Part shown: one piece after another, positions 9,571-62,223 of the stretch
How positions within the stretch are numbered: the first letter of the stretch is position 1
Layout of the letters: each line of letters starts with the position of its first letter
Origin: Jatrophihabitans sp.
GTDB lineage: Bacteria > Actinomycetota > Actinomycetes > Mycobacteriales > Jatrophihabitantaceae
Direction: 5' to 3'
Assembly: GCA_036497285.1 (NCBI GenBank)
Contig: DASXJR010000062.1
Coordinates: 281 to 64,280, forward strand
DNA length: 64,000 nt
The notes under the pieces: model-generated
Told to the model about the DNA's origin: nothing
The model's input: only the letters and a program-made list of their open reading frames with translations
Database searches by the model: none
Made by a program: the position numbers and the translations under genes

Positions 9571-9667
9571 CACCGACAATGGTCAGTGCGCGCACCGACA
9601 GTGGTCAGTTGGAGCGCACAGTGGTCAATTGCAACTGACCACTGTGGACAGAACTAACCACTGTCGG
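9571..9667. repeat. Family A nested-palindrome element, copy A1 (three forward and two reverse motif units)
   Basis: GACAATGGTCAGTG, GACAGTGGTCAGTT, CACAGTGGTCAATT | GCAACTGACCACTGTG, GAACTAACCACTGTC. Sits between convergent stop codons at 9560 and 9682. Confidence 0.9.
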
Positions 9668-9681
9668 GAAACGCGCCCAGC

Positions 9682-10614
9682 TCAATCGGTGGACGAAAGC
9701 GCGCGCACGACCAGCGACGGGCTGGGCCGGCCGAGCTGCTCGGCCATCCAACGGCTCGTCCCGACCAGCGCCTCGAGATCGACGCCGGTCTCGATGCCGA
9801 GCCCGTGCAGCATCCATACGAGATCTTCCGTCGCCAGGTTGCCGGTCGCGTTCTTGGCATAGGGGCACCCGCCGAGGCCGCCCGCGGACGCGTCGACGGT
9901 TGTGATGCCGTACCGCAACGCGGCCAGGGTGTTGGCCAGCGCCTGCCCGTACGTGTCGTGGAAATGCACTGCCAGCCGGTCGGCGGCGATCCCCCGCTCG
10001 CCGAACCCGGTGAGCAGGGCGGTGACATGCCCCGCACTCGCCACCCCGATCGTGTCGCCGAGGGACAGTTGCGAGCAGCCCAGGTCGAGCAACTGCGCGC
10101 CGACCGACACGACCTGCTCGATGGCCACCGCGCCCTCCCAGGGATCGCCGAAGCACATCGAGAGATAGGCGCGCACGTCCAGCCCTGCGTCCCGGGCGCG
10201 AGTCACGACCGGGCCGAACATCGTGATCGACTCCGCCACCGTCCGGTTGAGATTGCGTTTGGCGAACGACTCGGTCGCGCTGCCGAAGATGGCGATCTCG
10301 GTGATGCCGTGGGCCAGCGCACGGTCCAGACCGCGCTCGTTCGGGACGAGGACGGGGTAGCGCACGCCGGGCACCCGCTCGATCCGGCCGATCAGTTCCT
10401 CGGCGTCGGCCAGCTGCGGTACCCACGTCGGGTGCACGAAGCTGGTGGCCTCGATCGTGCGCAGTCCGGCAGCCGCGAGCCGGGCGACGAACTGAGCCTT
10501 CACCTCGACTGGAACCACCGTCGGCTCGTTTTGCAGACCGTCACGAGGCCCCACCTCGTGTATGGTGACGGCACTCGGCAGACCGGGCTCAACAACGCGC
10601 TGCGGGCTTCTCAC
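9682..10614 (-). CDS. Hydroxymethylglutaryl-CoA lyase
   Basis: HMGL-like motifs VTIHEVGPRDGLQNE, ...GDTIGVA..., HFHDTYGQALAN. GTG at 10614 chosen because the longer ORF (to 10692) would overlap the divergent neighbour. Confidence 0.85.
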   Translation of the reverse strand: MRSPQRVVEPGLPSAVTIHEVGPRDGLQNEPTVVPVEVKAQFVARLAAAGLRTIEATSFVHPTWVPQLADAEELIGRIERVPGVRYPVLVPNERGLDRALAHGITEIAIFGSATESFAKRNLNRTVAESITMFGPVVTRARDAGLDVRAYLSMCFGDPWEGAVAIEQVVSVGAQLLDLGCSQLSLGDTIGVASAGHVTALLTGFGERGIAADRLAVHFHDTYGQALANTLAALRYGITTVDASAGGLGGCPYAKNATGNLATEDLVWMLHGLGIETGVDLEALVGTSRWMAEQLGRPSPSLVVRALSSTD

Positions 10615-10684
10615 CCGTCCAGTATCCGTGCGGTAACCCTTAGTCCAGCTTGAACCGGTGTAATGGACGTATGGAGTCCGGCCT

Positions 10685-12271
10685 TTGAGCACAATCAGTC
10701 CCCGTTCCGCACCCCATCATCTGCGGGTGCGGCTGCCCAGCCTCGCCCTCGTGACGGTCACGAGCGTGCTCGTCGCCTGGCTCGCCCGCTGGGGTCCCGA
10801 CTGGCCGGCGCAGGAGTTCCGGGCCTGGATCGCCGGACACGACGGCCTGTCGCTGTGGACGATGCGCTGGTACAGCGGTTCGGCCTTGCCGGGCTATTCA
10901 GTGCTCTATCCGCCGCTCGCCGCGGTGCTGGGCGCGGGCACCGTCGGTGTCGTCGCGTGCGTGGCCATCACCTGGTCCGCCTCCGGGGCGATCCCCAACG
11001 TGAGCCGGCGCCGCGCGACGCTGATCGGCGTCGGAATCGCCGTCAGTGTCACCGAGAACCTGTTGATCGGCCAGGTGCCGTTCCTGCTCGGGACCGCGTT
11101 CGCGGTTGCGGCGGTCCGCAGCCTGCTGACCGGGCGCTCGCCCTACCTCACCGCCGCGCTCGCCGCACTGGCCTCGCTGTCCAGTCCGCTTGCCGGGGCG
11201 TTCGTGCTGCTCGTCTCGCCGGCTCTGGCGCACAACCGCGGGGTACGGGCCGTGTTGCCATTGGGCGCCGCGATCACCGGCTCAGCGGTCGCGTTCGTGA
11301 TCGGCGGGGTGGACGGACCGTTCCCGTGCCCATGGCAGACGTTCCTCGGTGTGGCCGCGTTCTGCGTCGCGATCCTGGTCATCGCTCCTAGGTCGCAGGC
11401 CGCGATGCGCTTGTTCGCCGCCTGCTATCTGCTCGTCGACGTCGCGGCGTTCTTGGCGCCGAACCCGATCGGCGGCAATGTCGCGCGCCTTGCCAAGCTC
11501 GTCGCGATCCCGCTTGCCGTGTACTACCTCGACGGTCGCGGGGTGTGGTCACGCATCCGGACGTCGGCGATCGCGGTGCTCGCGGTCGTGTGGCCGACGG
11601 TGGCATTCGCCTCGTCGGTGGTGCACGGCGCTGATGACCCGTCGCGGGCGCCGTCCTTCTATGCCGGCATCGACCGCTTCCTGGCGAGCCGGCCGGCGCT
11701 GATCTCCGGGCGGCTCGAGATCCCGTTCACCCGCGAACACTGGGAGTCCTACTTCGTCGCACGGCACTTCCCGATCGCCCGCGGGTGGGAACGGCAGTCC
11801 GACCTGCAGTACAACGCCGTCCTCTACAACCGGCTGACGCCCGCGCGCTACCGCGCCTGGCTCGACGACAATGCGGTCAGCGTGGTCGCCCTGCCGCGGG
11901 CACCGCTCGACACCGGAGGCAAGGCCGAGGCGGCGCTGCTGCGGCACGCACCGTCGTACCTCGTCCCGGTCTGGCAGGACGCGCACTGGCGGGTGTGGCG
12001 AGTGGCCGATCCCGAACCGCTCGTGTCCGGGCCGGCCCGGCTGGTCGATCAGGAGCCGTCAGCACTCACCTTGCACTTCTCTGCGCCGGGCACGGCCGTC
12101 GTCCGGGTCCGCGCGAGCAACCTCTGGGTCAGTGATGACCCGGACGCCTGCATCGGCCGTACGCCGCGGGACTGGCTCACGGTCAGTTCGCCGAGCGCCG
12201 GCAACATCCAGGTCAAGACGTCGCTGACGGCGCAGCTGATCACCGGGACGGGCTGCCCCGGCGACCGCTGA
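10685..12271 (+). CDS. Polytopic membrane protein with C-terminal soluble domain (possible GT-C-type glycosyltransferase)
   Basis: 528 aa. About 10 predicted TM helices, then a roughly 200-aa hydrophilic domain. No motif that I can name precisely. Confidence 0.5.
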   Translation: MSTISPRSAPHHLRVRLPSLALVTVTSVLVAWLARWGPDWPAQEFRAWIAGHDGLSLWTMRWYSGSALPGYSVLYPPLAAVLGAGTVGVVACVAITWSASGAIPNVSRRRATLIGVGIAVSVTENLLIGQVPFLLGTAFAVAAVRSLLTGRSPYLTAALAALASLSSPLAGAFVLLVSPALAHNRGVRAVLPLGAAITGSAVAFVIGGVDGPFPCPWQTFLGVAAFCVAILVIAPRSQAAMRLFAACYLLVDVAAFLAPNPIGGNVARLAKLVAIPLAVYYLDGRGVWSRIRTSAIAVLAVVWPTVAFASSVVHGADDPSRAPSFYAGIDRFLASRPALISGRLEIPFTREHWESYFVARHFPIARGWERQSDLQYNAVLYNRLTPARYRAWLDDNAVSVVALPRAPLDTGGKAEAALLRHAPSYLVPVWQDAHWRVWRVADPEPLVSGPARLVDQEPSALTLHFSAPGTAVVRVRASNLWVSDDPDACIGRTPRDWLTVSSPSAGNIQVKTSLTAQLITGTGCPGDR

Positions 12272-12278
12272 TCGTCGG

Positions 12279-12491: not shown

Positions 12492-12647
12492 GACGCCACC
12501 TCCTCTCGGCGGTGCGGGACAGTCGCCGTCGACGACTGCGGCCCGGGCGGGCCGACCGCTGACAGTACTCGATGGGCAGTCATACCGGTGTTCAGTGCGC
12601 TAAACCGGCAAAACGAATATGTTCCTCGCAGCACCGCGGCGTTCGTG

Positions 12648-25166: not shown

Positions 25167-25191
25167 GCAGGCGCCGCGTCGCGAACCTCAG

Positions 25192-25261
25192 ATGAGTGGC
25201 GCGTTGTGACGCTGAGTGGCGCGATATTTCGCGCCACTCAGCACGTGAACGCGCCACTCAT
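25192..25261. repeat. Family B nested-palindrome element, copy B1
   Basis: ATGAGTGGCGCG - CTGAGTGGCGCGA tatt TCGCGCCACTCAG - CGCGCCACTCAT, 26 nt after the MFS stop. Confidence 0.9.
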
Positions 25262-25434
25262 CACAATGGACGGGATGTCGAGCCCACGGAGCTGTCCCTT
25301 GTGGACGACCGGGAGATCTCGATTGCCGGCTGTGGACGACGCCCGATCGACCTCGCCGGCCGCGAACCTGGTTTCGTGGATGATTTCGTCAGACTCGGGC
25401 ACGGCCGTACCGCCCGGCCGGATCGATCGCCGAC

Positions 25435-26257
25435 ATGGCCGACCGGATCGGCGCCTACCTCGACGCACTGCCTCCGGACACGGTCGTCGGCGGTATCACC
25501 GCGGCGCGCATGTACGGGCTCTGGCTGCCGGAGCAAGTGCCCGATGAGCGCCTCGAGTTCGTCCTGAATCGCCCCGCATCCCAGGCGCGCGAACTCGCCA
25601 CCTGTAGACGCAGCGAGATCGTCACGCGGCGCCGCGAATTGTCGGCCGACGAGATCGTCATGACCGACCGCTTTCCCATGTTGTCGCCCGCTCGCGTGTG
25701 GGTCGATCTGTGCGAGTCGCTGTCCTTGGAGGACATCGTCAGCGCCGGCGACTGCTTGCTGCGCGGGCTCGCCACCCAGGACGAGCTCATCGCCGCGGTG
25801 GCAATGGCGCGGCATCGCCGCGGCGTTTGCCGTGCCCGGCTCGGCAATGGCGCGGCATCGCCGCGGCGTTTGCCGTGCCCGGCTCGCATTGACCCTGCTC
25901 GATGCACGCTCACGATCCCGCGGCGAGACCCATCTGCGATGCGCCGTCGTCCTCGGCGGATTGCCGTGGCCCGAGGTGAACATGCCCATCTACACCGACG
26001 ATGGCGAGTGGCTGGCCGAACCCGACCTGCACTACAAGGCCGCTCGGCTCGCGCTCGAGTACAACGGAAGCGATCACAGCGGAGTTCGGCGGATGCGCCG
26101 AGACATCACCCGCGAGATCGACATCGATTGGAACGACTGGAAAGTAGTCGTCTTCGGTCCGAACGAGGTCTTTCGCTTTCCGTGGCGGATCGCGCCCTAC
26201 GTCCGGGGGCAGCTGCAGGCTCGCGACCCCGGTTGGTGGCGTCGCCAGGCCGGCTGA
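25435..26257 (+). pseudogene. DUF559 / Vsr-like endonuclease-domain protein (AbiEi-like N-terminus) disrupted by a 43-bp tandem duplication
   Basis: Two overlapping ORFs (25435.. and 25832..26257) both encode [14 protein letters not shown]. Deleting one 43-bp copy gives a continuous 259-aa protein ending ...[10 protein letters not shown]...[15 protein letters not shown]... Confidence 0.75.
25800..25886 (+). repeat. Perfect 43-bp tandem duplication (2 copies) inside the DUF559-like gene
   Basis: GCAATGGCGCGGCATCGCCGCGGCGTTTGCCGTGCCCGGCTCG occurs at 25801-25843 and again at 25844-25886. Confidence 0.95.
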
Positions 26258-26299
26258 GCCCGAGTGCCGGGCCCGCGGTTCCTGAGCCCGAGTGCTGCA

Positions 26300-26368
26300 A
26301 TGAGTGGCGCGAACTGGCGGTGAGTGGCGCGAAATGTCGCGCCACTCATGGGTTAACGCGCCACTCAT
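26300..26368. repeat. Family B nested-palindrome element, copy B2
   Basis: ATGAGTGGCGCG - GTGAGTGGCGCGA aatg TCGCGCCACTCAT - CGCGCCACTCAT. An extra degenerate unit TCGCCACTCAC lies at 26381-26391. Confidence 0.9.
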
Positions 26369-26433
26369 GCGAAAAGAAGGTCGCCACTCACCGGAAAAGG
26401 AGGTCGCGGGTCGTCGGAAAAGGAGGTCGCGGG
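26365..26433 (+). repeat. 23-nt tandem repeat x3 with an AAGGAGG core
   Basis: TCATGCGAAAAGAAGGTCGCCAC / TCACCGGAAAAGGAGGTCGCGGG / TCGTCGGAAAAGGAGGTCGCGGG. Ends 3 nt from the sdaA stop codon. Confidence 0.85.
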
Positions 26434-34047: not shown

Positions 34048-35445
34048 TCAGGTCGCGGCGATGACCAGGCCGGACATCGTGGGCACGAGCACGTTGCGGC
34101 CGTAGAGCGCAGGCGTCGCGAACCGGCTCGTCTCCCCGACCTGGACTTGCTCGCGGGTCACACCCGTGCGCAGGTCGAGCGCATGCAGCACGCCGGCCGT
34201 GGGGTCGAGGGTCCACACCCGTCCGCCGCCGACCACCGGCGAGCCGTTCACGCTGTCCGTTGCCCGCCAGAGCGGGTGCACCGTGCCCGCGTCGTCGATG
34301 CGCACGGCCCGGTCGCCGTCCGTACACGGCACATAGACGACGTCGCCGACGACGGCCGTCCCGCCGTACGAGTGGCACAACGCAACCTGGCTCACCTCGC
34401 CACCGATCCCGCCGAGGTGGCGCTGATCGAGTACGTAGGCCGTGCCGGACTTGCCCGCGGCGAAGACCCAGCGGGCGCCGACCAGCGCCGGACCCTGCGA
34501 ACCGAGATCCAGATCGCCCGCGTTGTCACTCGCCCAGCTCGACGGCGAGAACGAGTCGAGCAGTTGTGCGGATGGGCTGATCTTGAGCACCGAATCGCTG
34601 TGGTCGTACGGATCGCCCTGCACGGACGCGCCGTTGCCGACTTGCACGAACAGGTTTCCGCCCGCGTCGACGGACGGGCCGGGCGGCGTCCAGATGCCGG
34701 CCTCGCGCGCGGTCGGGACCGTGTACGCGATCGGCGCGCCTGTGCCGTCGAGCCGCACCCCGATCACGCGGCCCTTGTAACCGCCGCAGTCGCCGAGCAA
34801 CCCGCCGAAGGGCACCCACACCCGGCCGCCGGTGACGGTGAGCGCCCCGCGCTCCTGCATCGCGCGGGTTTCGACGCCCGGCAGGTCGATCGAGCGGCGC
34901 CACCGCACCGCGCCGGTGTCAAGATCCAGCGCGACCAACTCGTGCCGTGGCGGCGAGCCGTACTCCGGCGCCACGTAGACCGTGCCGTTCGCGACGACCG
35001 GGGTGCCGGTGATGCCCAGTGGATCGATGTTGCCGCAGGGCAGTTCGTCGGCGGTGGCGGGCGAGCCCAGGTGCTGCTCCCACTTCTTGTGGCCGCCGAG
35101 GTCGAACGCGTAGACGGTGTCACCCTCGCTCGCTGCGATCACCACACCGCCCACGACGACCGGCGACGCGTACATCGCGCCGTCCAGCTTCAGGTCGGCG
35201 ACGATCCGAGGCGTGCGGGTGACGGTCGGCATGGACGGTGCGTACCCGGTCCGATCGACCCGGCCGTGGTAGGTCGGCCAGTCGGTGAGGTGCCGGGGCG
35301 GCGGCGCATCCGAAGACAACGCCGACGACGCCGGAGTCGTCGGCGTAGTGCTCGCCGGCGCGGTGGCGCTCGGGCCGCCCGTCCCGCTGCTGGTGCAGCC
35401 TGCGACCAGGACGGCGACCGCGGCCAGCGCGGCCCGCACACGCAT
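34048..35445 (-). CDS. PQQ-like beta-propeller repeat lipoprotein (paralog 1)
   Basis: ATG at 35445. Lipobox LVAGCTSS. Blocks DWPTYHG, CGNIDPLGITGTPV, YTVPTAREAGIWTPPG, DLDLGSQGPA shared with the upstream paralog. Confidence 0.7.
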   Translation of the reverse strand: MRVRAALAAVAVLVAGCTSSGTGGPSATAPASTTPTTPASSALSSDAPPPRHLTDWPTYHGRVDRTGYAPSMPTVTRTPRIVADLKLDGAMYASPVVVGGVVIAASEGDTVYAFDLGGHKKWEQHLGSPATADELPCGNIDPLGITGTPVVANGTVYVAPEYGSPPRHELVALDLDTGAVRWRRSIDLPGVETRAMQERGALTVTGGRVWVPFGGLLGDCGGYKGRVIGVRLDGTGAPIAYTVPTAREAGIWTPPGPSVDAGGNLFVQVGNGASVQGDPYDHSDSVLKISPSAQLLDSFSPSSWASDNAGDLDLGSQGPALVGARWVFAAGKSGTAYVLDQRHLGGIGGEVSQVALCHSYGGTAVVGDVVYVPCTDGDRAVRIDDAGTVHPLWRATDSVNGSPVVGGGRVWTLDPTAGVLHALDLRTGVTREQVQVGETSRFATPALYGRNVLVPTMSGLVIAAT

Positions 35446-36836
35446 CAGTAGCCCAGGACGGTGAGCCCCGACATGGTCCCGATCAGGATGCGCCGTCCCG
35501 ACAGTGCGGGCGTGGCGAACCTGGTCACCGACCCGACCGCGACCGACGCCCGCGCGCCGCCGTGGAACGGGCCGAGGCCGTGCAGCACACCGCTGCCGGT
35601 GTCGAGGGTCCACACCACCCCGCCGCCGACTACCGGCGAGCCGGTGATCGAGGACGGCGCCTGCCACAGCATGTGCATGTGGCCGGAGTTGTCGATCCTG
35701 ACCGCGCGCACCCCATCCGTACACGGCACGTACACGACGTTGTCGCGCACCGCTGTGCCACCGAAGGACGTGCAGAGGCTGGTCTTGCTGACCTGGCCGC
35801 CGATCCCGCCGAGATGCCGCAGGCGCAGCACGTAGGCCGTCCCCGACTTGCCCGCGGAGAACACCCACTTGTTCTGCACGATGGCCGGTCCCTGCGAGCC
35901 GAGGTCGAGGTCGCTCTGGTTGTCGGTCGCCCAGGTTGTCGGCGAAAAATGGTCGAGCAGGCGCCCACCGGTGCCGATGCGCAGGATCGAGTCGCTGAAG
36001 TCGTACTTGTCACCGGGGCCGGACGCGCCGTTGCCGACCGAGACAAACAGGTTTCCTGAAGGTCCGACGCTGGCGCCGGGCGGCGTCCAGATCCCCGCCT
36101 CGCGCGCGGTCGGAACGGTGTAGCGCACGGTTGAACTGCCGTCGAGCTTCCAGCCGACGACCCGTCCCTTGTAGTTGCCGCAGTCTCCGGCCAGACCGCC
36201 GAAGGGCACCCACACCCGGCGGTCGGTGATGGTGAGCGCGCCGCGCTCCTGCATGGCAGTGCGGTCGACGCCCTTGAAGTCGAGGGTCCGCTTGAACACG
36301 ACGGCACCAGTGCCGATCTTGAGCGCGTACAGCCGGTGGAACGGCCGGGCCGCACCGAACTCGGCAGCGACGTAGACGCGGTGGTTGCGCTCGGAGTAGA
36401 CCGGCGTGCCGGTGATCCCGAGCGGGTCGATGTTGCCGCACGGACGTTGCGATGCCGGTGACGGAGCGCCGAGGTGCCGCTTCCACACGACGTGGTTGCG
36501 CGGCCCGAAGGCGTAGACGGTGTTGTTCTCGGTCGCGACGATCGTCAGTCCGCGGGCGACGATCGGCGAGGCGTAGACCTGTCCGTCGAGGGTGATGCGC
36601 CGGATCACGTGCAGGCCGCGGTGATAGGCGGGCATTCGAGCGTTGCGGCCACTGCGTTCGTTGTCGCCGTGGTAGGTCGTCCATTCGTTCGCACCGGCGG
36701 CACGGTGGGCACTGTGAGCCGTGCGGACGGATTGTTCGGCTCCGGCGGGGACGGTGGTCACGGCGGCCAGCGCGGACGTCCCGAGCAACACGGCAGCCAA
36801 GATCGCGGGTGGGTGCATTTGTGCAGTTTGCGCCAT
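35445..36836 (-). CDS. PQQ-like beta-propeller repeat secreted protein (paralog 2)
   Basis: 463 aa. Signal peptide ...TVPAGAEQ. Same conserved blocks as paralog 1. Its TGA shares one nucleotide with the paralog-1 ATG (TGATG). Confidence 0.7.
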   Translation of the reverse strand: MAQTAQMHPPAILAAVLLGTSALAAVTTVPAGAEQSVRTAHSAHRAAGANEWTTYHGDNERSGRNARMPAYHRGLHVIRRITLDGQVYASPIVARGLTIVATENNTVYAFGPRNHVVWKRHLGAPSPASQRPCGNIDPLGITGTPVYSERNHRVYVAAEFGAARPFHRLYALKIGTGAVVFKRTLDFKGVDRTAMQERGALTITDRRVWVPFGGLAGDCGNYKGRVVGWKLDGSSTVRYTVPTAREAGIWTPPGASVGPSGNLFVSVGNGASGPGDKYDFSDSILRIGTGGRLLDHFSPTTWATDNQSDLDLGSQGPAIVQNKWVFSAGKSGTAYVLRLRHLGGIGGQVSKTSLCTSFGGTAVRDNVVYVPCTDGVRAVRIDNSGHMHMLWQAPSSITGSPVVGGGVVWTLDTGSGVLHGLGPFHGGARASVAVGSVTRFATPALSGRRILIGTMSGLTVLGY

Positions 36837-38810: not shown

Positions 38811-38904
38811 TCACCTCGTCTGATTGCGGCCCCGAGCAGGGTAGTCGACCTGACTCCGCTCGCTCTTGGCCCCGCTGCAGGGTCCGCGTCGGCGTGTCGC
38901 CCGG

Positions 38905-39315
38905 CTACGGGGCCAAGACGTCGGCGGCTTCGGGGTCGCTGTCGCGCAGGAAGGTCGCGCAACGCTGTGCCTCGTCGTTCTCACCGATCGCGGCGGCAGC
39001 CTGACCCAGCGCGTGCAGCGCGCGCAGGAACCCCCGGTTCGGCTCGTGCGCCCACGGGACAGGCCCGGATCCGCGCCACCCCGCGCGGCGCAGCGCGTCC
39101 AGCCCGCGGTGGTAGCCGGTCCGCGCGTAGGCGTAACCCTCGACCGTCCGGCCGTCCGCGAGCGCCGCCTCGGCGAGCGTGGCCCACGCCAGCGACGACA
39201 CCGGAAACGCCGCAGCCACCGCGACGGGGTCGTCTCCGGCCGCGAGCCGGGCACTCGCCGGGTCCTCGGGCAGGCGGGTGGGCGGGGTCAGCAGGTTGCC
39301 GTGCGAGTGGGTCAC
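38905..39315 (-). CDS. DUF3151-family protein (conserved actinobacterial neighbour of fba)
   Basis: 136 aa. GYAYARTGYHRGLDALRRAGWRG...PNRGFLRAL. Confidence 0.75.
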   Translation of the reverse strand: MTHSHGNLLTPPTRLPEDPASARLAAGDDPVAVAAAFPVSSLAWATLAEAALADGRTVEGYAYARTGYHRGLDALRRAGWRGSGPVPWAHEPNRGFLRALHALGQAAAAIGENDEAQRCATFLRDSDPEAADVLAP

Positions 39316-39386
39316 ACCGGCGATTGTGTCAGCGTCTGTTGTCGGGCGCGGACGCCGGCTGGCGTTGGCAGCCTGACCTTGTACCG

Positions 39387-39431
39387 GTTTTGGCGGTCTG
39401 ACGTTCTCTACGGCGACAGGCCGCCAAAAGT
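39387..39431. repeat. Family C hairpin element, copy C3
   Basis: GTTTTGGCGGTCTG - 16-nt loop - CAGGCCGCCAAAAGT. Ends 3 nt from the fba stop codon. Confidence 0.8.
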
Positions 39432-39434
39432 GCG

Positions 39435-40460
39435 TCAGGCGGTCGGGCTGGTGCCGGCCGAGAGCAGGTCCTCGCAGGCGCGCTGTACACGCGCCGCCAT
39501 GCCGGTCTCGGCCAGCTTGAGGTACGAGCGCGGGTCGTAGACCTTCTTGTTGCCGACCTCGCCGTCGACCTTGAGCACGCCGTCGTAGCTGGTGAACATG
39601 TGCCCGGCGATCTCGCGGGTGAACGCGTACTGGGTGTCCGTGTCGACGTTCATCTTCACCACGCCGTAGCCGACGGCTTCGCGGATCTCGTCCAGCGACG
39701 AACCGGAGCCACCGTGGAACACGAGATCGAACGGCTTGTCCCTACCCACCTTCGCCGCGACCTCGTCCTGCAGGTCCTTCAGGATTGACGGACGGAGCTT
39801 GACGTTGCCCGGCTTGTAGACGCCGTGCACGTTGCCGAACGTCGCCGCGAGCAGGTAACGGCCCTTGTCGCCCGTCCCGAGCAGTTCGGCGGTACGCACC
39901 GCGTCGCCCGGCGCGGTGTACAGCTTCTCGTTCATCTCGCCGACGACGCCGTCCTCCTCGCCGCCGACCACACCGATCTCGACTTCGAGCACGATCCTCG
40001 CCGCCGCGGCCTTCTCGAGCAGTTCCGCCGCGATCGACAGGTTCTCCTCGAGTTCGATCGCCGACCCGTCCCACATGTGCGACTGGAACAGCGGGTTCTG
40101 GCCGCGCTCGACGAGACCCTGCGAGATGGCGATGAGCGGACGGACGTAGCTGTCGAGCTTGTCCTTCTGACAGTGGTCGGTGTGCAGCGCGATGTTGATC
40201 GGGTACCTGGACGCGACGACGTGTGCGAACTCGGCCAGCGCTACCGCGCCGGTGACCATGTCCTTGACCGCGGTGCCGGAGGCGAACTCCGCGCCGCCGG
40301 TCGAGACCTGCAGGATGCCGTCGCTGCCGGCATCGGCGAATCCGCGCAGCGCGGCGTTCAACGTCTCGGACGACGTGACGTTGATCGCGGGATAGGCGAA
40401 CCCGCCCGCCTTGGCGCGGTCGAGCATGTCGGCATAGATCTCGGGCGTAGCGATCGGCAT
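39435..40460 (-). CDS. fba: Class II fructose-bisphosphate aldolase
   Basis: 341 aa. MPIATPEIYADMLDRAKAGGFAYPAINV..., HTDHC, HGGSGS motifs. Confidence 0.95.
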   Translation of the reverse strand: MPIATPEIYADMLDRAKAGGFAYPAINVTSSETLNAALRGFADAGSDGILQVSTGGAEFASGTAVKDMVTGAVALAEFAHVVASRYPINIALHTDHCQKDKLDSYVRPLIAISQGLVERGQNPLFQSHMWDGSAIELEENLSIAAELLEKAAAARIVLEVEIGVVGGEEDGVVGEMNEKLYTAPGDAVRTAELLGTGDKGRYLLAATFGNVHGVYKPGNVKLRPSILKDLQDEVAAKVGRDKPFDLVFHGGSGSSLDEIREAVGYGVVKMNVDTDTQYAFTREIAGHMFTSYDGVLKVDGEVGNKKVYDPRSYLKLAETGMAARVQRACEDLLSAGTSPTA

Positions 40461-42681: not shown

Positions 42682-42710
42682 ATCCTGCGGCCCCGGCCGG
42701 GCCGCAGGAT
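42682..42710 (+). terminator. GC-rich hairpin 17 nt after the sigma-factor stop (12-bp perfect stem, 5-nt loop, no U-tract)
   Basis: ATCCTGCGGCCC cggcc GGGCCGCAGGAT. Confidence 0.45.
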
Positions 42711-44563: not shown

Positions 44564-44615
44564 CGTCGGGGTCCTCGCGGAATCGCCACGCTTTCCAGGC
44601 GATTTCGTGGGGTGA

Positions 44616-46590: not shown

Positions 46591-46627
46591 CCGCGTCTGC
46601 CGCAGCCTGCTCGACCCGCTGGTGCGG

Positions 46628-46697
46628 ATGAGTGGCGCATTTTGCGCGTGAGTGGCGCGATATCTCGCGCCACTCATGCCCGTATCCCGCCACTCAT
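46628..46697. repeat. Family B nested-palindrome element, copy B3
   Basis: ATGAGTGGCGCA - GTGAGTGGCGCGA tatc TCGCGCCACTCAT - CCCGCCACTCAT, 38 nt after the rnj stop and upstream of map. Confidence 0.9.
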
Positions 46698-46731
46698 CGA
46701 GACCGGGGTTCGCGCCGCCCGGCACAATAGA

Positions 46732-48657: not shown

Positions 48658-49851
48658 GTGGATCCCGTTCGGAACCCCTATGCCCCCGGCGCGGGGCAGC
48701 GCCCGCCGGAACTGGCCGGCCGTGACACCGAGCTCGACGGCTTCGAGGTGGTGCTCGAGCGGATCGCGCGGTCACGCCCGGAACGCTCGATGGTGCTGAT
48801 CGGGTTGCGCGGCGTCGGCAAGACCGTGCTGCTGAACGCGATGCGCAGCGCCGCGGTGCGTCGCGGGTGGGGCACCGGCAAGCTCGAGGCTCGTCCGGGG
48901 CAGTCGCTGCGTCGTCCGCTCGCCGCCGCGCTGCACCTGGCGGTGCGCGAACTGGCACACCCGCAGGACGCCGACGTGCGTCAGGTGCTCGGTGTGGTGA
49001 AGGCCTTCGCCCAACGTGAGCCCGCCGGCGCGAAGCCGACCAAGCAGCGGTGGTCGCCGGGCATCGACGTGCCGGCCGCGGTCGGACGGGCGGACTCGGG
49101 CGACACCGAGATCGATCTCGTCGAGCTCTTCTCGGACGTCGCAGGGCTGGCCGCCGACACCGGGCACGGTATTGCGGTCTTCATCGACGAGATGCAGGAC
49201 ATCGGTCCCGACGACGTCTCGGCGCTGTGCGCGGCGTGCCATGAGATCTCGCAGCAGGGCCTGCCGCTGGTGGTGGTCGGCGCCGGACTGCCGCATGTGC
49301 CGGCCGTCCTTTCCGCGGCCAAGTCGTACTCCGAGCGGCTGTTCCGGTTCGCACGAATCGACCGGCTCGAGCGAGCGGCCGCCGACGTCGCGCTGCAGGT
49401 ACCGGCCCGCGAGGAGGGCGCGGAGTTCACCGACGACGCGCTCGCCGCGATGTACGCAGCCACCGGCGGCTATCCCTACTTCGTGCAGGCGTACGGCAAG
49501 GTGGCGTGGGACGTCGCGCCGCACTCGCCGATCACCGCCGACGACATCGCGGTCGCCGCACCCGTCGCCGAGAGCGAACTCGCGGTGGGATTCTTCGGCT
49601 CGAGGTACGAGCGGGCCACGCCGGGCGAACGCGAGTACCTACGGGCAATGGCCGAGGTGGCCGAGCCGGTGGCTCCGGACGAGCCGGTCGCGACCGCCGC
49701 GGTGGCTGAGGTGCTGGAGCGGTCGCCGCAGTCGGTGTCGCCGGCGCGCGATGCGCTGCTGAAGAAGGGCTTGATCTACTCGGGGCAGCGGGGCCGGATC
49801 GCGTTCACCGTTCCGCACTTCGGCCGCTACCTGCGCGAGCTCGAGGCTTAA
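48658..49851 (+). CDS. AAA+ ATPase (ORC/Cdc6- or archaeal-ATPase-like) with C-terminal winged-helix-like region
   Basis: 397 aa. NPYAPGAGQRPPELAGRD...VLIGLRGVGKTVLL Walker A, FIDEMQD Walker B. Confidence 0.65.
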   Translation: MDPVRNPYAPGAGQRPPELAGRDTELDGFEVVLERIARSRPERSMVLIGLRGVGKTVLLNAMRSAAVRRGWGTGKLEARPGQSLRRPLAAALHLAVRELAHPQDADVRQVLGVVKAFAQREPAGAKPTKQRWSPGIDVPAAVGRADSGDTEIDLVELFSDVAGLAADTGHGIAVFIDEMQDIGPDDVSALCAACHEISQQGLPLVVVGAGLPHVPAVLSAAKSYSERLFRFARIDRLERAAADVALQVPAREEGAEFTDDALAAMYAATGGYPYFVQAYGKVAWDVAPHSPITADDIAVAAPVAESELAVGFFGSRYERATPGEREYLRAMAEVAEPVAPDEPVATAAVAEVLERSPQSVSPARDALLKKGLIYSGQRGRIAFTVPHFGRYLRELEA

Positions 49852-50468
49852 ATCACTGCGTGCTGGCGGATCCAGGTGTGCATCGCGATCCCTGCGGCGA
49901 CGCCGGCGTTGATCGAGCGGGTCGAGCCGAACTGGGAGATCGACACCGTCAGTGCGGCAACCGCACGCGCCTCGTCGGACAGCCCCGTCCCCTCCTGCCC
50001 GAACAACAGCAGCGCGTGGCGCGGCAGCGTCGTGGTCTCGAGCGGCACTGCACCGGGCAGGTTGTCGACGGCCACCAGTGTGTAGCCCTGCTCGGACGCG
50101 TAGGCCGCCAGGTCAGCTGGGGTGTCCAGGTGGCGCACGTGCAAGTAGCGGTCGGTGACCATCGCACCGCGCCGATTCCAGCGCCGCCGTCCGACGATGA
50201 TCACCTCGCGAGCCTGGAAGGCGTTCGCCGTGCGCACCACCGTCCCGATGTTCAGGTCGTGGCGCCAGTTCTCGATCGCCACGGCGAACTCGTGCCGCGT
50301 TGTGTCCAGGTCGGCCTTGATCGCCTCGACCGTCCAGTACCGGTACCGGTCGGCGACGTTGCGGCGGTCGCCATGGCGCAGCAGGCCCGGGTCCATCCGC
50401 GGGTCGTCCGGCCAGGGCTGCGGGTGCGGCCCGACCCCGACGTCCGGACAGTGGTCAGTTTCGTCCAC
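49848..50468 (-). CDS. TrmH/SpoU-family RNA 2'-O-methyltransferase
   Basis: C-terminal SPOUT knot motifs (LLFGQEGTGLS, IPQ-like SISQFGSTRSINAGVAAGIAMH). Start uncertain: GTG 50468 lies inside repeat A2, ATG 50396 is an alternative. Confidence 0.75.
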   Translation of the reverse strand: MDETDHCPDVGVGPHPQPWPDDPRMDPGLLRHGDRRNVADRYRYWTVEAIKADLDTTRHEFAVAIENWRHDLNIGTVVRTANAFQAREVIIVGRRRWNRRGAMVTDRYLHVRHLDTPADLAAYASEQGYTLVAVDNLPGAVPLETTTLPRHALLLFGQEGTGLSDEARAVAALTVSISQFGSTRSINAGVAAGIAMHTWIRQHAVI

Positions 50469-50514
50469 AGTGGTTAGTTGTAACTGACCACTATCGCCGG
50501 AACTAACCACTGTC
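50447..50514. repeat. Family A nested-palindrome element, copy A2
   Basis: GACAGTGGTCAGTT - CACAGTGGTTAGTTG|TAACTGACCACTAT - GAACTAACCACTGTC. Ends 6 nt from the pyrE stop. Confidence 0.9.
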
Positions 50515-50520
50515 GGCGCA

Positions 50521-51042
50521 TCAGGCGAGGCCGAGGTCGGCGAGGGTGTAGACCGAGCGCGCCTCGAAGCCCTCGGCCTCGATCGTGGCGAGGCCGCCGC
50601 GATCGGCGATCAGCGCGACGCCGGCGACGGTGGCGCCGGCTTCCTGTGCGGCCCGGGCGGCGGTCAGGGGTGAGTCCCCGGTCGTCGAGACGTCGTCGAC
50701 GATCAGCACCCGGCGTCCCTCGACGGACGGGCCCTCGATCTGCTGCTGCATACCGTGCGCCTTCTGCGCCTTACGGACGAGGAACGCGTCCACCGCACCG
50801 CCGGACGCGTGCATCACCGCGCAGGCCACCGGGTCCGCGCCCAGAGTGAGCCCGCCGACCGCGTCGTAGTCCCAGTCGGACGTGAGCGAGCGCAGCGCGG
50901 CCCCGACCAGCGGGCCGGCGGTGCGGTGCAGCGAGATGCGCCGCAAGTCGAGGTAGTAGTCGGCCTCTTTGCCGGAGGACAGCGTGACCTTGCCGTGCAC
51001 CACGGCGAGGTCCTTGATCAGATCGAGCAGTTGGTCAGCCAC
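50521..51042 (-). CDS. pyrE: Orotate phosphoribosyltransferase
   Basis: 173 aa. PRPP-binding motif VLIVDDVSTTGDS. Confidence 0.9.
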   Translation of the reverse strand: MADQLLDLIKDLAVVHGKVTLSSGKEADYYLDLRRISLHRTAGPLVGAALRSLTSDWDYDAVGGLTLGADPVACAVMHASGGAVDAFLVRKAQKAHGMQQQIEGPSVEGRRVLIVDDVSTTGDSPLTAARAAQEAGATVAGVALIADRGGLATIEAEGFEARSVYTLADLGLA

Positions 51043-52801: not shown

Positions 52802-53473
52802 ATGACCGTCCCGCCCGAGAAGGACCCCGAGGGCAGCGGGTCGAGCGAACAGGCCCCGCTGGACTTCGATCCGTACCGCTTCGGCAAGCCCGACCACCCG
52901 ATCCCGCCGGAGTACGCCCCGCCGGGTTACGTGCCGCCGGCCACCCAGCCGGGTCAACCGGCGCCGGTGTGGCCGCCGCGTGACGACGAGCAGCGCACGC
53001 CGTACGGCGGCTACCCGCAGTACCCGCCGGGCCCGTACCCGCCGGGCCAGTACCCGCCGAGCCCGTACCCACCGGGCCAGTACCAGCAGGGCCAGTACCA
53101 GCAGGGCCAGTACCAGCAGCACCCGCCGCCACCGCCGGGCTACCCGGCGTACGGGCTGGTGCAGCAGGGCAACGGCAAGGCCACCACGGCGATGGTGCTC
53201 GGCATCCTGGCGATCGTCTTCTTCTGGCTGACGATCATCGACCTGGCGCTCGCCATCCCAGCGATCGTCATCGGCGCACTGGCCCTGCGCGACGCCAAGC
53301 GGTTCCCCGAGCGCGGTGGTCGGCGCAAGGCCTTTGCCGGCCTGGTGTGCGGGATCGTCTCGGTCGTCATGATCATCGCGACCGTCGCCGTCGTGTACGT
53401 AAGGATCAAGCCGTGCTTCGACTACGGCATGAACTCGAACGCGTACAACTCATGCGTGCGGGACAAGCTCTAG
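52802..53473 (+). CDS. DUF4190-like membrane protein with Pro/Gln/Tyr-rich N-terminal region
   Basis: 223 aa. PPGQYPPSPYPPGQYQQGQYQQGQYQQ low-complexity region, then two TM helices (MVLGILAIVFFW..., GLVCGIVSVVMII). Confidence 0.65.
   Translation: MTVPPEKDPEGSGSSEQAPLDFDPYRFGKPDHPIPPEYAPPGYVPPATQPGQPAPVWPPRDDEQRTPYGGYPQYPPGPYPPGQYPPSPYPPGQYQQGQYQQGQYQQHPPPPPGYPAYGLVQQGNGKATTAMVLGILAIVFFWLTIIDLALAIPAIVIGALALRDAKRFPERGGRRKAFAGLVCGIVSVVMIIATVAVVYVRIKPCFDYGMNSNAYNSCVRDKL
53075..53119 (+). repeat. Perfect 15-nt tandem repeat x3 (GGCCAGTACCAGCAG, encodes GQYQQ)
   Basis: Read directly at 53075-53089, 53090-53104 and 53105-53119. Confidence 0.9.
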
Positions 53474-53483: not shown

Positions 53484-54134
53484 GTGACCGAGCAGACCCC
53501 GCAGGATCCCTACGCCGGCAAGCCGTACTACGGCCCGCCGCAGCAGCCGTACGGCCAGTACCCCCCGCAGGGGTACGGGCAGCAGTATCCGCAGCAGTAC
53601 CAGTCATATCCGCAGCAGCCGGGGTATTCGCCGTACCCGCAGTACGCGCCGTATCAGTACCAGCCCTATCCGTACCCGTACCAGCGGCCGCCCGACAGGC
53701 CGGGTACCGCGACCACCGCGGCCGTGCTCGCCTTCGTCGCCGGCGGGTTGCTGATCGTCGCCTCGCTGTTCCTGTTCGCCGGCGCCTCGCTGATCAACGA
53801 CCTGGGCGACGAGCTGAACCAGAGCACCGGTCCCGCCACCAGCGAACTCGCGATCGACGGGGTCATCAATCTGATCGCGTCGGGGCTGCTGATCGCGGGC
53901 GGGGTGATGGTGGCCGGGCGCAAGCTGCGCGGGCGCAACCTGCTCACCACCGGCAGCGGCATCGTCGTTGCCTGTTCGATCTACTGGTTGGTGCGCTTCG
54001 ACCACTCGTTCGGCGGCACGGTGTTCTACGCGGTGCTGTTCTCGGCGCTGGTCGTCATCTCGGTGTCCATGGCCTTCACGACGACGTCGCGGGCCTGGCT
54101 GACAGCAGCGCCGTCCACCAAGCCCGCGACGTAG
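53484..54134 (+). CDS. Membrane protein with Pro/Gln/Tyr-rich N-terminal region (second of tandem pair)
   Basis: 216 aa. YGQYPPQGYGQQYPQQYQSYPQQPGYSPYPQYAPYQYQPYPYPYQ, then 4 TM helices. Confidence 0.6.
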   Translation: MTEQTPQDPYAGKPYYGPPQQPYGQYPPQGYGQQYPQQYQSYPQQPGYSPYPQYAPYQYQPYPYPYQRPPDRPGTATTAAVLAFVAGGLLIVASLFLFAGASLINDLGDELNQSTGPATSELAIDGVINLIASGLLIAGGVMVAGRKLRGRNLLTTGSGIVVACSIYWLVRFDHSFGGTVFYAVLFSALVVISVSMAFTTTSRAWLTAAPSTKPAT

Positions 54135-56721: not shown

Positions 56722-56771
56722 ACAGTCACTATCTCCTGTGTTGAGGTCCTGACGACACAACGAACCGCAAG

Positions 56772-56790: not shown

Positions 56791-56858
56791 CCCAGTCCGA
56801 CTTGGCCTCCCAGCAGGGCGACACGCCGCGCACGACCCTGCTGCGGGGCCAAGCCGGG

Positions 56859-58415
56859 TCAGGCAAGAGCGATCATGGTGTCCGCGGCGGCGGCGAGGAC
56901 GGGATCGTGGGTCGCGGCGACGACGGCCACCCCGGCGCGGGCTGCCGCGACGAGCACCGCGGCGACGATCTCCGCGTGCGCTTCGTCCTGCTGGGAGGTC
57001 GGTTCGTCCAGCACCACGAGCGGACGCTGGGTCACCAGCGACCGGGCGATCCCGACCCGCTGCCGCTCGCCGCCCGACAGCAGCCGGACGGGCCGGCGCG
57101 AGACCGCGGCCAGGCCGAGCGCGGCAACCACCGAGCGGGCCGGCGCGTCGTCGGGCGACATGCCGCGGGCGGCGCGGGCGAGGGCCAGGTTCTCCCAGGT
57201 GTCCAGCGGCTCGGCGAGCGCGCCGGACTGCATGCTCACCCCGACCAGCGCCCGGCGCACATCGGCCCGGGCGCTGCGCGACAGCACCGCCAGGTCGTGC
57301 TCGCCGAGGCGCACTGTGCCCGAGTCGGGGTCCGCGAGACCGAGAAGCAGCCGCAGCAGGGTCGACTTGCCGGCCCCGGACCGTCCCCGCACGATCGTCA
57401 GCGCGCCGGGTGCGATCGTCGCGTCGAAGCCGTCGAACACGACGCGGTCGCCGTAGCTCACGCCGATGTCGCGCAGCGCTGCCACCGGTCCGTCCGTGAC
57501 TTGCTGCGGAGGTTGCAGCTGGATCGTCCGATCCGGCTCCGGCAGGTACTCGCCGTCGCCGGACAGCATTGCCGCGTCGCCGTGCGCCCGCACCCGCGCG
57601 CGCTCGCGCAGCCCGATCCGGCGGCGCAGAGACTCCGGCAGACGCACCCAGCCCCGGTCGTCGACCACGAGCTCCTCGTCGTCCGGCGCGTCCGGGGACC
57701 ACTGCTCGGACAGCCGACCGTCGCGGATGCGCACCACCCGGTCGGCGATGCGGGCCGCCCGCTGGTCGTGGGTGACGAGCACGAGCGTGGCGTCCGCGCG
57801 CTTGGCTGCCGCGGCCAGCAGGTCGTAGACGGCGTCGGCAGCGTCGATGTCCAGCTCGCCGGTGGGTTCGTCGGCGAGCACGACGGACGGGCCGTGCGCC
57901 ATCGCGGCACAGACGGCCACCCGCTGCGCCTCGCCCGCGGACAGCGTCGGCGGGCGCCGCGCGGCGAGCGCGGAAAGGCCGAGCGCGCCGAGCGACTCCT
58001 CGGCGGTGGCGCGGGCCGCGCGGCGGTCGTGCCCGGACAGCCGTAGCTGCAGCGCGACGTTGTCGAGCACGTCCAGCTCGGGTCGCAGCGCACGTCCCGA
58101 GTGCTGGTCGACGACGCCGAGCACCTCGCGCCGCAGTCCGGAAAGCCGGGCCGACCGCGCGCCGGCCAATTCCACGCCGCTCACCCGCACCGATCCGGAG
58201 CTGGCCGCCACCTCGCCGGTCAGCACCCGCAGCAAGGTCGTCTTGCCCGACCCGTTCGGACCGTGCACGACCAGGCCTTCCCCGGCTGGCACGCGCAGCG
58301 ACAAGCCGCGCAATGCTGCCACCGTCGCTCCGCCCGGCACTGTGTACAGGCAGAACAGATCGGCCACGCGGATCGCGTCCTGTGCGCGCTCGTTCTGGAC
58401 GGGTTCGATGGTCAT
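56859..58415 (-). CDS. ABC transporter ATP-binding protein with two fused nucleotide-binding domains
   Basis: 518 aa. NBD1 GPNGSGKTT / LSAGEAQR / VVLADEPT. NBD2 GRSGAGKST / LSGGERQR / VVLDEPT. Confidence 0.85.
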   Translation of the reverse strand: MTIEPVQNERAQDAIRVADLFCLYTVPGGATVAALRGLSLRVPAGEGLVVHGPNGSGKTTLLRVLTGEVAASSGSVRVSGVELAGARSARLSGLRREVLGVVDQHSGRALRPELDVLDNVALQLRLSGHDRRAARATAEESLGALGLSALAARRPPTLSAGEAQRVAVCAAMAHGPSVVLADEPTGELDIDAADAVYDLLAAAAKRADATLVLVTHDQRAARIADRVVRIRDGRLSEQWSPDAPDDEELVVDDRGWVRLPESLRRRIGLRERARVRAHGDAAMLSGDGEYLPEPDRTIQLQPPQQVTDGPVAALRDIGVSYGDRVVFDGFDATIAPGALTIVRGRSGAGKSTLLRLLLGLADPDSGTVRLGEHDLAVLSRSARADVRRALVGVSMQSGALAEPLDTWENLALARAARGMSPDDAPARSVVAALGLAAVSRRPVRLLSGGERQRVGIARSLVTQRPLVVLDEPTSQQDEAHAEIVAAVLVAAARAGVAVVAATHDPVLAAAADTMIALA

Positions 58416-61493: not shown

Positions 61494-61521
61494 TAACCAT
61501 TGGCCGTCATTTAGTGGTTAG
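61493..61521. promoter_or_regulatory. Inverted repeat CTAACCA-N15-TGGTTAG in the permease/CGNR divergent intergenic region (candidate operator)
   Basis: Read directly. The left arm abuts the permease start codon. The right arm is 24 nt upstream of the CGNR gene ATG. Confidence 0.3.
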
Positions 61522-61544
61522 CATGCTCCCATGCGGGGGTCGCG

Positions 61545-62129
61545 ATGACCAGGCACTTCGTCGAGGGTCGACCGATGCCCGACCATGTCGCCGGACACCG
61601 CGCGCTCGAGTTCTGCAACACCAAGGCACTGTGGGGACGGGCGGACGAGAACGAGTACCTCACCGACCACACCGCGGCGGTCATCTGGGCCCGTGAGCAC
61701 GAGTTGGTCACGCCCGCAGAGGCGGCGACACTGCGCACGGTCGACCGGCCGCGCGGACGCGCCGCCCTGGGGCAGCTGCGGGCGCTGCGCAAAGCGCTCT
61801 ACTACGCGGCGATCGCTGATGGGCCGCTCGAGCCCGTCCATGACTTTGTGGCACGCGCGGTCGCTCGGGCGGAATACCACCGCGACGGCGCGACGCAGCG
61901 GCTGCAGGCCCCGATGTCGCCGACCGTGCTCGTCGATCGCGTGGCGCTCGACGTGCACCATCTGCTCGAGGACTACGGCACCGCCGCGGTCGGGCTGTGC
62001 GCGAGCGAGGCGTGTGGCTGGGTGTTCCTCGACCCGTCGCACCGTCGCCGGTGGTGCTCGATGGCCATCTGTGGCAACCGCGCCAAAGCGGCGCGGTTCC
62101 GCCGTCGCCAGTCGCCCGATGCCGACTGA
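61545..62129 (+). CDS. CGNR zinc-finger (ABATE domain) putative regulator
   Basis: 194 aa. C-terminal CASEACGWVFLDPSHRRRWCSMAICGNRAKAARFRRR is the CGNR zinc-finger signature. Confidence 0.8.
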   Translation: MTRHFVEGRPMPDHVAGHRALEFCNTKALWGRADENEYLTDHTAAVIWAREHELVTPAEAATLRTVDRPRGRAALGQLRALRKALYYAAIADGPLEPVHDFVARAVARAEYHRDGATQRLQAPMSPTVLVDRVALDVHHLLEDYGTAAVGLCASEACGWVFLDPSHRRRWCSMAICGNRAKAARFRRRQSPDAD

Positions 62130-62154
62130 CGCCCCAGCCCCAACCGTCCAGAAC

Positions 62155-62223
62155 GACAGTGGTCAGTTTCGTCAGTCAGTGGTTAGTTGCAACTGACCAC
62201 TGTGGCCGGAACTGACCACTGTC
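62155..62223. repeat. Family A nested-palindrome element, copy A3
   Basis: GACAGTGGTCAGTT - TCAGTGGTTAGTTG|CAACTGACCACTGTG - GAACTGACCACTGTC. Between the convergent stops of the CGNR gene and hspR. Confidence 0.9.

Follow-up and report, generated by a model that had tools for sequence, protein, structure and literature searches.

Only one case is, to our knowledge, well understood in which short palindromic repeats are maintained in bacterial genomes alongside a dedicated enzyme that is inherited vertically: the REP/REPIN-RAYT association, essentially confined to the Proteobacteria. The repeats are repetitive extragenic palindromes (REPs) or REP doublets forming hairpins (REPINs), and the enzyme is the REP-associated tyrosine transposase (RAYT). 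REP palindromes carry a conserved GTAG or CGTC tetranucleotide at one end (PMC3733652). Their layout with the RAYT gene is characteristic: the low-copy gene lies between cognate repeats, solo copies of the repeats are located at gene 3' ends, and each paralogue is associated with its own repeat family (PMC2817692, PMC3116915). Here we analyse a stretch of 64,000 nucleotides from Jatrophihabitans sp. (contig DASXJR010000062.1, hereafter 'the window'; GC content 69.3%), in which a gene for a putative nuclease lies between two copies of a 72-nt palindromic element, and related elements recur downstream of other genes. The sequence is contained in a JGI metagenome contig of 317,820 bp (3300036829, Ga0376667_0000004), and its adenylosuccinate synthase supports assignment to the Jatrophihabitantaceae, with 92% identity to the homologue of a Jatrophihabitantaceae MAG and 89% to that of Jatrophihabitans cynanchi.

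The product of the flanked gene combines an AbiEi_1-like domain with a Vsr/DUF559-type nuclease domain of the PD-(D/E)xK type, and the elements form two related families, A and B, each made of four repeated units. We consider it probable that the A and B elements are the REP/REPIN-like DNA partner of this nuclease family. The gene would lie between two copies of its cognate palindrome, with many more solo copies scattered through the genome; the protein would recognise the repeated units, four sites per element, and cut at or near them. Cutting would spread or homogenise the solo copies in trans, or leave solo copies behind, and copies would survive only where they are harmless, that is, shortly after stop codons and above all where neighbouring genes converge. 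Two further families in the window, C and D, are simpler arm-loop-arm hairpins of the same general kind. A wider proposal, to which we would give a little less than an even chance, is that the Actinomycetota harbour an undescribed class of such systems, in which each palindrome family co-evolves with its own nuclease paralogue, which would bind the units and cut the palindrome to spread or maintain it, as a non-HUH analogue of RAYT/REPIN. Within the incomplete coverage of our literature search (DUF559, AbiEi, MTES_1575, REP and MITE in actinobacteria), we found no published account of the elements or of their association with a nuclease, and strings of the unit motifs returned unrelated matches only. 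The nuclease locus and the solo B element of the window are as follows:

B1, 25191-25262: four-unit element with unit TGAGTGGCGCGA, 24 nt past the stop of a major facilitator superfamily (MFS) gene; upstream flank of the nuclease gene
Nuclease gene, 25435-26257, + strand: AbiEi_1-like domain fused to a Vsr/DUF559-type nuclease domain; between B1 and B2
B2, 26299-26370: four-unit element, 41 nt past the stop of the nuclease gene; convergent with a serine dehydratase (SDH) gene
B2 tail, 26359-26433: 23-nt tandem repeats starting with the last unit of B2
B3, 46627-46698: solo four-unit element, 36 nt past the stop of the RNase J gene; upstream of a methionine aminopeptidase gene

The association between gene and palindrome extends well beyond the window. 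At each of the five independent close-homologue loci that we examined (the window, L209/L210, L211, L212 and L213, where L numbers are our locus labels), a four-unit element of type B, or of the related type B', is present on each side of the gene. The downstream element adjoins or overlaps the stop codon, and the upstream element lies 90-170 nt before the start. Given a background of about one element per 10 kb, chance cannot account for five independent loci that each have an element within 200 nt of the gene on either side. At least seven further homologues have open reading frame (ORF) ends that run into B or B' units. Searches with tblastn found no nuclease gene beside the solo B elements of 62 soil-metagenome loci, nor beside solo A elements. 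In L213, the nuclease gene and both elements (9629-10945) lie on the opposite strand between infA and map, in a conserved ribosomal-protein/secY/adk region. For a selfish gene, such a place of insertion is striking.

When distant homologues are included, palindromes are found on both sides at 10 of the 12 gene loci examined. The distant homologues from Tsukamurella and Arthrobacter (30-44% identity) are flanked by palindromes unrelated to B. Tsukamurella tyrosinosolvens NCTC13231 encodes three paralogues, annotated 'DUF559 domain-containing protein', with three different flanking palindromes. The flanking arms are ACATCTTTCGAAGCGTTCTGCGA for paralogue 1 and ATTGAACACCGTTTCTG for paralogue 2, and the two corresponding families have about eight further solo copies each (some 10 copies of each family across records totalling roughly 2-3 Mb). 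For paralogue 3 (L225, NZ_LR134451.1 349500-350660), the palindrome seems to be split by the gene: a left arm and an 18-nt core hairpin are found upstream, and the core hairpin and a right arm downstream, as if the gene had been inserted at the palindrome centre, duplicating the core. In Arthrobacter, the homologue of strain ERGS1:01 has the arrangement > > > < upstream and > < downstream, and that of StoSoilB13-2 has related palindromes on both sides. A first-pass annotation of the window, made from its sequence alone, had suggested that several REP-like families might each be recognised by their own protein. The cognate palindromes at 10 of 12 loci, and the three Tsukamurella paralogues each with its own family, bear this out in part; we found no partner genes of C and D in the window.

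What does the flanked gene encode? Homologues number 175 at E<=1e-5, and a profile search for the family returns 664 clusters at E<=1e-30 and 7,499 at E<=1e-10. Many homologues come from short contigs (about 1-1.2 kb), which is what assemblies broken by repeats flanking the gene would yield. Among 38 members, Pfam matches are to AbiEi_1 (16/38), DUF559 (12/38) and the Vsr-type restriction endonuclease family MTES_1575 (11/38); the AbiEi_1 matches are weak, and the window copy is below the gathering score. In an AlphaFold (AF2) model of a family member (pLDDT 91.3), the predicted C-terminal domain resembles, by Foldseek, the catalytic domain of the homing endonuclease I-Bth0305I (3r3p, TM 0.73) and the DUF559 protein NGO0050 (3hrl, TM 0.75). 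A sequence search of the PDB with the family profile gave no match; fold comparison alone did. Residues D203, E214, H220 and D229 are invariant in the family, together with an arginine. The modelled protein has a Vsr-like fold with conserved acidic and histidine residues, which are putatively catalytic, and its N-terminal AbiEi_1-like domain is putatively DNA-binding. Neither Pfam nor fold comparison revealed a recombinase domain in it.

The region upstream of the gene also presents a recurrent motif. Boxes of the form TGTGGAYRA (TGTGGACGA) occur on the + strand of the window between B1 and the nuclease gene, at 25300-25308 and 25331-25339. The same box, often in two copies, is typically found about 47 nt before the gene start in L209-L213 and L215, in both Jatrophihabitantaceae and Arthrobacter copies, for a background frequency of 0.045 per kb. 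Its reverse complement (TTGTCCACA/TTATCCACA) fits the DnaA-box consensus, and the box may serve as a promoter element, as an operator or as a binding site for DnaA.

Nine palindromic elements had been listed in the first-pass annotation, in three families said to be unrelated (A1-A3, B1-B3 and C1-C3). Repeat finding recovered all nine at the same coordinates, far above chance. A and B elements are 72 nt long, with a core of 12-13 nt (ACAGTGGTCAGTT in A, TGAGTGGCGCGA in B) present in two direct and two inverted copies (> > < <); units are spaced by 19-20 nt, start to start, around a centre of 4-6 nt. A covariance model of this four-unit form retrieves exactly six A/B elements from the window, with E-values of 1e-13 to 1e-16 (next match, E 0.2), and AGTGGYSMGWT, the unit pattern common to A and B, is observed 12 times for 0.47 expected. 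Elements of family C, about 50 nt long, are simple hairpins whose arms (ACTTTTGGCGGC / GCCGCCAAAAGT) enclose a partly conserved centre. Taken by itself, the C arm is not significantly enriched (8 observed versus 4.3 expected with one mismatch allowed), but six exact or near-exact arms pair into three inverted pairs with similar centres. We also identified a fourth repeated hairpin family, D (CTTGGCCCCGC...GCGGGGCCAAG), absent from the earlier list, with copies 80% complementary and both adjoining stop codons. The 64-kb window thus holds six A/B, three C and two D elements. The hairpins are predicted to be very stable (-45 to -56 kcal/mol per 70 nt), although sliding-window folding energy alone does not distinguish the elements from the rest of this 69% GC genome. 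The A, C and D elements are located as follows:

A1, 9574-9667 (four-unit part 9596-9667): unit ACAGTGGTCAGTT, with a fifth direct unit at 9574-9590
A1 neighbours, convergent: 9018-9560 (+) and 9682-10692 (-, HMGL-like)
A2, 50445-50516: four-unit element, 4 nt past the stop of 50521-51042 (-); upstream of a SpoU methylase gene, 49848-50441 (-)
A3, 62154-62225: four-unit element in the convergent pair 61545-62129 (+, zf-CGNR) / 62235-62723 (-, MerR)
C1, 28296-28345: hairpin repeat occupying the 47 nt that separate the convergent acetyltransferase and OsmC genes; overlaps the stop codons of both
C2, 37472-37521: hairpin repeat between convergent nitroreductase and purA genes
C3, 39386-39435: hairpin repeat immediately past the fba stop
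D1, 38864-38918: family D; overlaps the stop codon of the DUF3151 gene
D2, 56797-56857: family D; 1 nt past the stop of an ABC-F ATPase gene, 56859-58415 (-); upstream of clpB

Families A and B had been thought to share a four-unit grammar through a common generating mechanism in spite of unrelated motifs. Their alignment contradicts this view. Elements A and B of the window, A elements from four other genomes and B' elements from relatives align from end to end without register shifts, with invariant columns at AGTGG (twice) and CCAC (twice), and GTT/AAC positions around the units are also common to A, B' and B. B' (GAGTGGTGCG), found in relatives, is intermediate in type between A and B, and one covariance model recovers all three. 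The full-length alignment with its invariant cores indicates that the four-unit grammar was inherited and did not arise by convergence. A and B are, from these alignments, homologous subfamilies of one superfamily of ~72-nt repeats with an AT-rich centre; of the three families first called unrelated, C is the one that stands apart. Templated hairpin duplication, another mechanism put forward initially, finds no direct support, yet tandem duplication of end units does occur: examples are the fifth unit of A1 (within 9568-9609), the B2 tail, L156, L191 and L215, including a case of three direct units in Arthrobacter. Slippage changes the number of units, which offers a possible origin for the multi-unit grammar.

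Expansion beyond the window, which the first-pass annotation had implied for its families, is clear for A and B. At least four genomes besides that of the window carry four-unit A elements, with two loci in Jatrophihabitantaceae SMAG_U5586, two in MFD09671.bin.2.11 and one in MFD09671.bin.1.202; the fourth is represented by ERZ25039595 contig_32755. In our search of the genome collection, the 15-nt unit pattern was too short to be specific: its 113 matches were mostly due to chance, and five loci were true A elements. Scanning metagenomes for the B core palindrome yielded 86 loci, 62 of which, each on a soil-metagenome contig, have the full four-unit architecture (GC 64.5-74.7%), with a 19/19 or 20/20 spacing in 55 of the 62. 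No copy of C or D was found outside the window's own genome in 1.4 Mb of comparison sequence.

Comparison of orthologous sites shows that elements turn over fast between species. The site past fba holds C3 in the window, an A element in L119 and only CTGACCACTGTCAGG in L120 (window 39386-39440, L119 5728-5821 and L120 6326-6345, respectively). In the latter, the last A unit is fused to the stop codon, and the site looks as if the A element, still complete in L119, had been lost by deletion at a CTGAC microhomology. At the purA site, C2 of the window corresponds to 12 nt between the two stops in L119 and to an unrelated hairpin with a 20-bp stem in L120. L119 also contains, downstream of its DUF3151 gene (8420-8690), four tandem copies of a ~32-nt sequence (GCGCCGACTTTGCACCCGGCAACGTCGTCCGG) followed by an inverted GGGTGCAAAGT, which constitutes another multi-unit family of different sequence.

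The position of the elements relative to genes was assessed with a curated gene map based on third-position GC, JGI gene calls (27.5-48.8 kb) and Pfam scans. As had been claimed at the outset for a distance of up to about 45 nt, each of the nine elements is close to a stop codon, at 0-41 nt: 13/14 nt for A1, 4 nt for A2, 24/9 nt for A3, 24, 41 and 36 nt for B1, B2 and B3, and 0-6 nt for the C elements, which overlap stops. The orientations given earlier are also correct, with A1, A3, B2, C1 and C2 between convergent genes, A2, B1, B3 and C3 between co-directional genes, and none between divergent genes. None of the seven divergent regions of at least 45 nt in the window is occupied (P ~0.011 when calculated by intergenic base pairs, a weaker 0.12 by region count), and the presence of at least five of nine elements in convergent regions has a P-value of 0.008 by base pairs and a weaker 0.04 by region count. 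The bias toward gene 3' ends holds in two other data sets. Among metagenome B loci with genes called on both sides (30 of 62), 20 are co-directional, 9 convergent and 1 divergent, with a median stop distance of 21 nt; the 13 Tsukamurella solo copies, placed on the RefSeq annotation, comprise 8 convergent, 5 tandem and no divergent cases, all within 68 nt of a stop (P = 0.001 for at least 8 of 13 convergent, given a probability of 0.2). The statement that most other gene ends lack a comparable structure is only partly true. Besides family D, single-copy strong hairpins, such as a perfect 13-bp stem and a 12-bp stem, follow other stops (4156-4193, 42682-42710 and ~44572-44612), so that the repeated families represent only part of the 3' hairpins.

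Is the hairpin itself under selection, or the sequence of its units? In the B set, complementarity between outer-inner spacers is 0.437 within elements versus 0.418 +/- 0.018 in shuffled pairs, with no element-specific covariation. Copies of Tsukamurella family 1 have conserved 23-bp arms around a centre of ~17 nt that is different in every one. Conserved units without element-specific spacer complementarity in B, and variable centres in Tsukamurella, fit recognition of the units by a protein better than selection of an RNA hairpin alone. In Rfam searches, two tRNAs alone pass the gathering thresholds, and relaxed searches gave only chance matches to miRNA-like hairpins.

We also considered the elements as intrinsic, Rho-independent terminators. 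The hairpins are strong, but no element is followed by a T-run and a consensus terminator scan flags no whole element; family C has TTTT on the 5' side of its stem and AAAA on the 3' side. Since the T-run is lacking downstream, and that of C is on the 5' side, these are not canonical intrinsic terminators, and we rejected this assignment. The flanks of B elements (L123-L208) are biased: the 16 nt on the 5' side are rich in C (44%, with 21% G) and the 16 nt on the 3' side rich in G (41%), so that a transcript coming from either side would meet a C-rich, G-poor stretch ahead of the hairpin. This bias may be tied to Rho-dependent termination or to a target preference. Complementarity between the flanks is weakly above the shuffled control and comes in part from the 3-4 terminal bases of the elements themselves.

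Several observations weigh against a mobilising partnership between the nuclease and the A/B elements. The window gene is frameshifted by a perfect 43-bp tandem duplication (25800-25886) and lacks the N-terminal ~20-30 residues of its homologues; it represents either a pseudogene of recent origin or an error of assembly, and the B copies of the window may therefore be relics. L209/L210 represents the same MFS-nuclease-SDH locus in another species (neighbours 77% and 85% identical, nuclease gene 64%), and such synteny between two species gives no sign that the gene moves over this span of time. Comparison of four-unit elements across loci revealed no target-site duplication and no clean junction between filled and empty sites. 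A screen of 268 family proteins for ORF ends running into A-, C- or D-type units gave B/B' signals only, with no A-, C- or D-type element beside such a gene, so that the tie of A to the nuclease rests on its homology to B. The apparent conservation of units in the metagenome set is inflated, since our search pattern fixed the inner B units, whose conservation is thus uninformative. Among the distant homologues, the palindrome of Arthrobacter ERGS1:01 has no dispersed copies on its replicon, StoSoilB13-1 (Arthrobacter) has a palindrome on one side only, and a partial match in Nonomuraea has no flanking palindrome.

Could the palindromes be the integration or homing target of the nuclease cassette, or the scar of its excision, instead of passengers mobilised in trans? 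The cassette would then enter and duplicate an existing palindrome, and recombination between the copies would delete the gene and leave a solo element, in the manner of solo long terminal repeats (LTRs). The flanking copies are indeed in direct register and sometimes near-identical over half their length: in L209 the identity takes in 19 nt of the gene 3' end, and the two copies of L211 have identical right halves. The apparent splitting of the Tsukamurella paralogue 3 palindrome and the resemblance of the nuclease domain to a homing endonuclease catalytic domain point the same way. However, solo copies are far more numerous than gene copies, integration and excision alone do not multiply sites, B3 is closer to B1 (79% identity) than B1 is to B2 (64%), and the protein has no recombinase domain, which makes this scheme unlikely. 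A different view is that the elements are kept mainly as structures beneficial to the host, either as bidirectional factor-dependent terminators or as 3' mRNA stabilisers, with a secondary link to the nuclease, for instance as insulation of a selfish gene. The location of copies within tens of nucleotides of stops with convergent enrichment in three independent data sets, the stability of the hairpins, the C-rich 5' and G-rich 3' flanks, and the occupation of the fba site by a C element, an A element or a relic, depending on the species, would all be in keeping with such roles. We nonetheless hold this view to be distinctly improbable: T-runs are missing past the elements and misplaced in C, outer-inner spacers show no compensatory pairing, unit sequence and not merely pairing is conserved across species, many gene ends have other hairpins or none, and the paralogue-specific palindromes at each nuclease gene are left unexplained. 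As an additional function, however, termination or stabilisation for the benefit of the host would be compatible with the proposed partnership.

Short extragenic palindromes that fall into several families per genome, lie at gene 3' ends and turn over fast recall REPs in general, which raises the question of whether the present elements are ordinary REP/REPIN elements driven by a RAYT, an HUH Y1 transposase, encoded elsewhere, the DUF559 gene being no more than a frequent neighbour. This is very improbable, since the element ends (CGACAGTGG..., GATGAGTGG..., CACTTTTGG...) carry no GTAG or CGTC tag, the flanked gene has AbiEi_1/DUF559 domains and not Y1_Tnp, the association is found at 10 of 12 loci across unrelated palindromes, and no RAYT is present among the window proteins scanned. 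Finally, four equally spaced conserved sites with dyad symmetry look like the cooperative operator arrays of a transcription factor, which would not be spreading repeats at all. The gene context led us to reject this interpretation, which is scarcely credible: divergent promoter regions are avoided, the sites lie past the stops of functionally unrelated genes, and occupancy of orthologous sites differs between close species.

The window has two other repetitive features. Periodic repeats of 15 nt (53003-53149 and 53538-53678), unrelated to the palindromes, encode a Pro/Gln/Tyr-rich low-complexity segment (QYPPGPYPPG...) in the ORFs 52802-53473 and 53484-54134. The PQQ-repeat genes 34048-35445 and 35445-36836 are adjacent tandem paralogues, with DNA identity of 73-81% between 34387-34889 and 35784-36283.

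If the pairing of nuclease paralogues with palindrome families is functional, high-GC Gram-positive bacteria would have an independent solution to the maintenance of short palindromic repeats, with a different nuclease fold, four-site elements and paralogue-specific recognition. Thousands of DUF559/AbiEi-like proteins that are now unannotated would then be given a role, a common reason for broken assemblies and for gene-end hairpins in actinobacterial genomes would be explained, and a source of naturally diversified protein-DNA recognition pairs would become available. The repeats could also be tested as terminators in organisms whose intrinsic terminators lack U-tracts. The idea is directly testable in T. 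tyrosinosolvens NCTC13231, a cultured and annotated strain that has three such pairs.

How do these elements compare with other known systems? Like integron attC sites (R''-L''-L'-R'), A and B elements have a four-box > > < < grammar that folds as a hairpin. We rejected this assignment: the outer boxes lack the GTTRRRY/RYYYAAC consensus, the neighbours are housekeeping genes in mixed orientation and the window contains no integrase. Neisseria DNA uptake sequences are also short conserved motifs with inverted copies just downstream of genes; here, an uptake role was rejected on gene context, with no evidence of competence and several unrelated motifs per genome. Miniature inverted-repeat transposable elements (MITEs), such as the Neisseria Correia elements (Neisseria miniature insertion sequences, NEMIS) and enterobacterial repetitive intergenic consensus (ERIC) sequences, are likewise small dispersed non-coding repeats with inverted ends and long hairpins, often co-transcribed with their neighbours. 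Inverted ends are present in our elements, but a MITE origin was discarded, as there is no flanking direct repeat, hence no target-site duplication, and no DDE transposase relative was seen; we know of no insertion sequence with a DDE transposase that is related to these elements. Moreover, the conserved arms and variable centres of Tsukamurella family 1 are the opposite of what is seen in copies of a master MITE.

On the protein side, AbiEi antitoxins of type IV toxin-antitoxin systems bind inverted repeats in their own promoter. The N-terminal half of our family has a weak Pfam match to AbiEi_1, whereas a fused nuclease domain and repeats dispersed genome-wide set it apart from these antitoxins; as no AbiEii nucleotidyltransferase neighbour was found at any locus examined, we did not retain it as a type IV antitoxin. 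With I-Bth0305I and the Vsr/DUF559-fold nucleases (3r3p, 3hrl), the family shares the C-terminal catalytic fold and, in L213, a distribution reminiscent of selfish genes. It differs from I-Bth0305I in its N-terminal domain, in its location outside any intron or intein, and in lying between two complete palindromes where a homing gene would split one site, with the possible exception of Tsukamurella paralogue 3.

The closest described counterpart is REP/REPIN-RAYT. Because they lack the GTAG/CGTC tag and a Y1 HUH transposase, and because the A/B unit is non-palindromic, we do not classify these elements as REPs and prefer the term 'REP-like'. Differences extend to the organisation of the element, which is made of four non-palindromic units of 19-20 nt in A and B and of two inverted palindromic REPs in REPINs, and to the partner, a PD-(D/E)xK Vsr/DUF559 protein with an AbiEi_1-like domain in place of an HUH Y1 transposase; the host belongs to the Actinomycetota, whereas RAYTs are mainly found in Proteobacteria. 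Both systems nonetheless consist of short extragenic palindromes, in several families per genome and mostly at gene 3' ends, and both include a low-copy gene flanked by cognate repeats, with paralogue-specific pairing and inheritance that can be vertical (syntenic).

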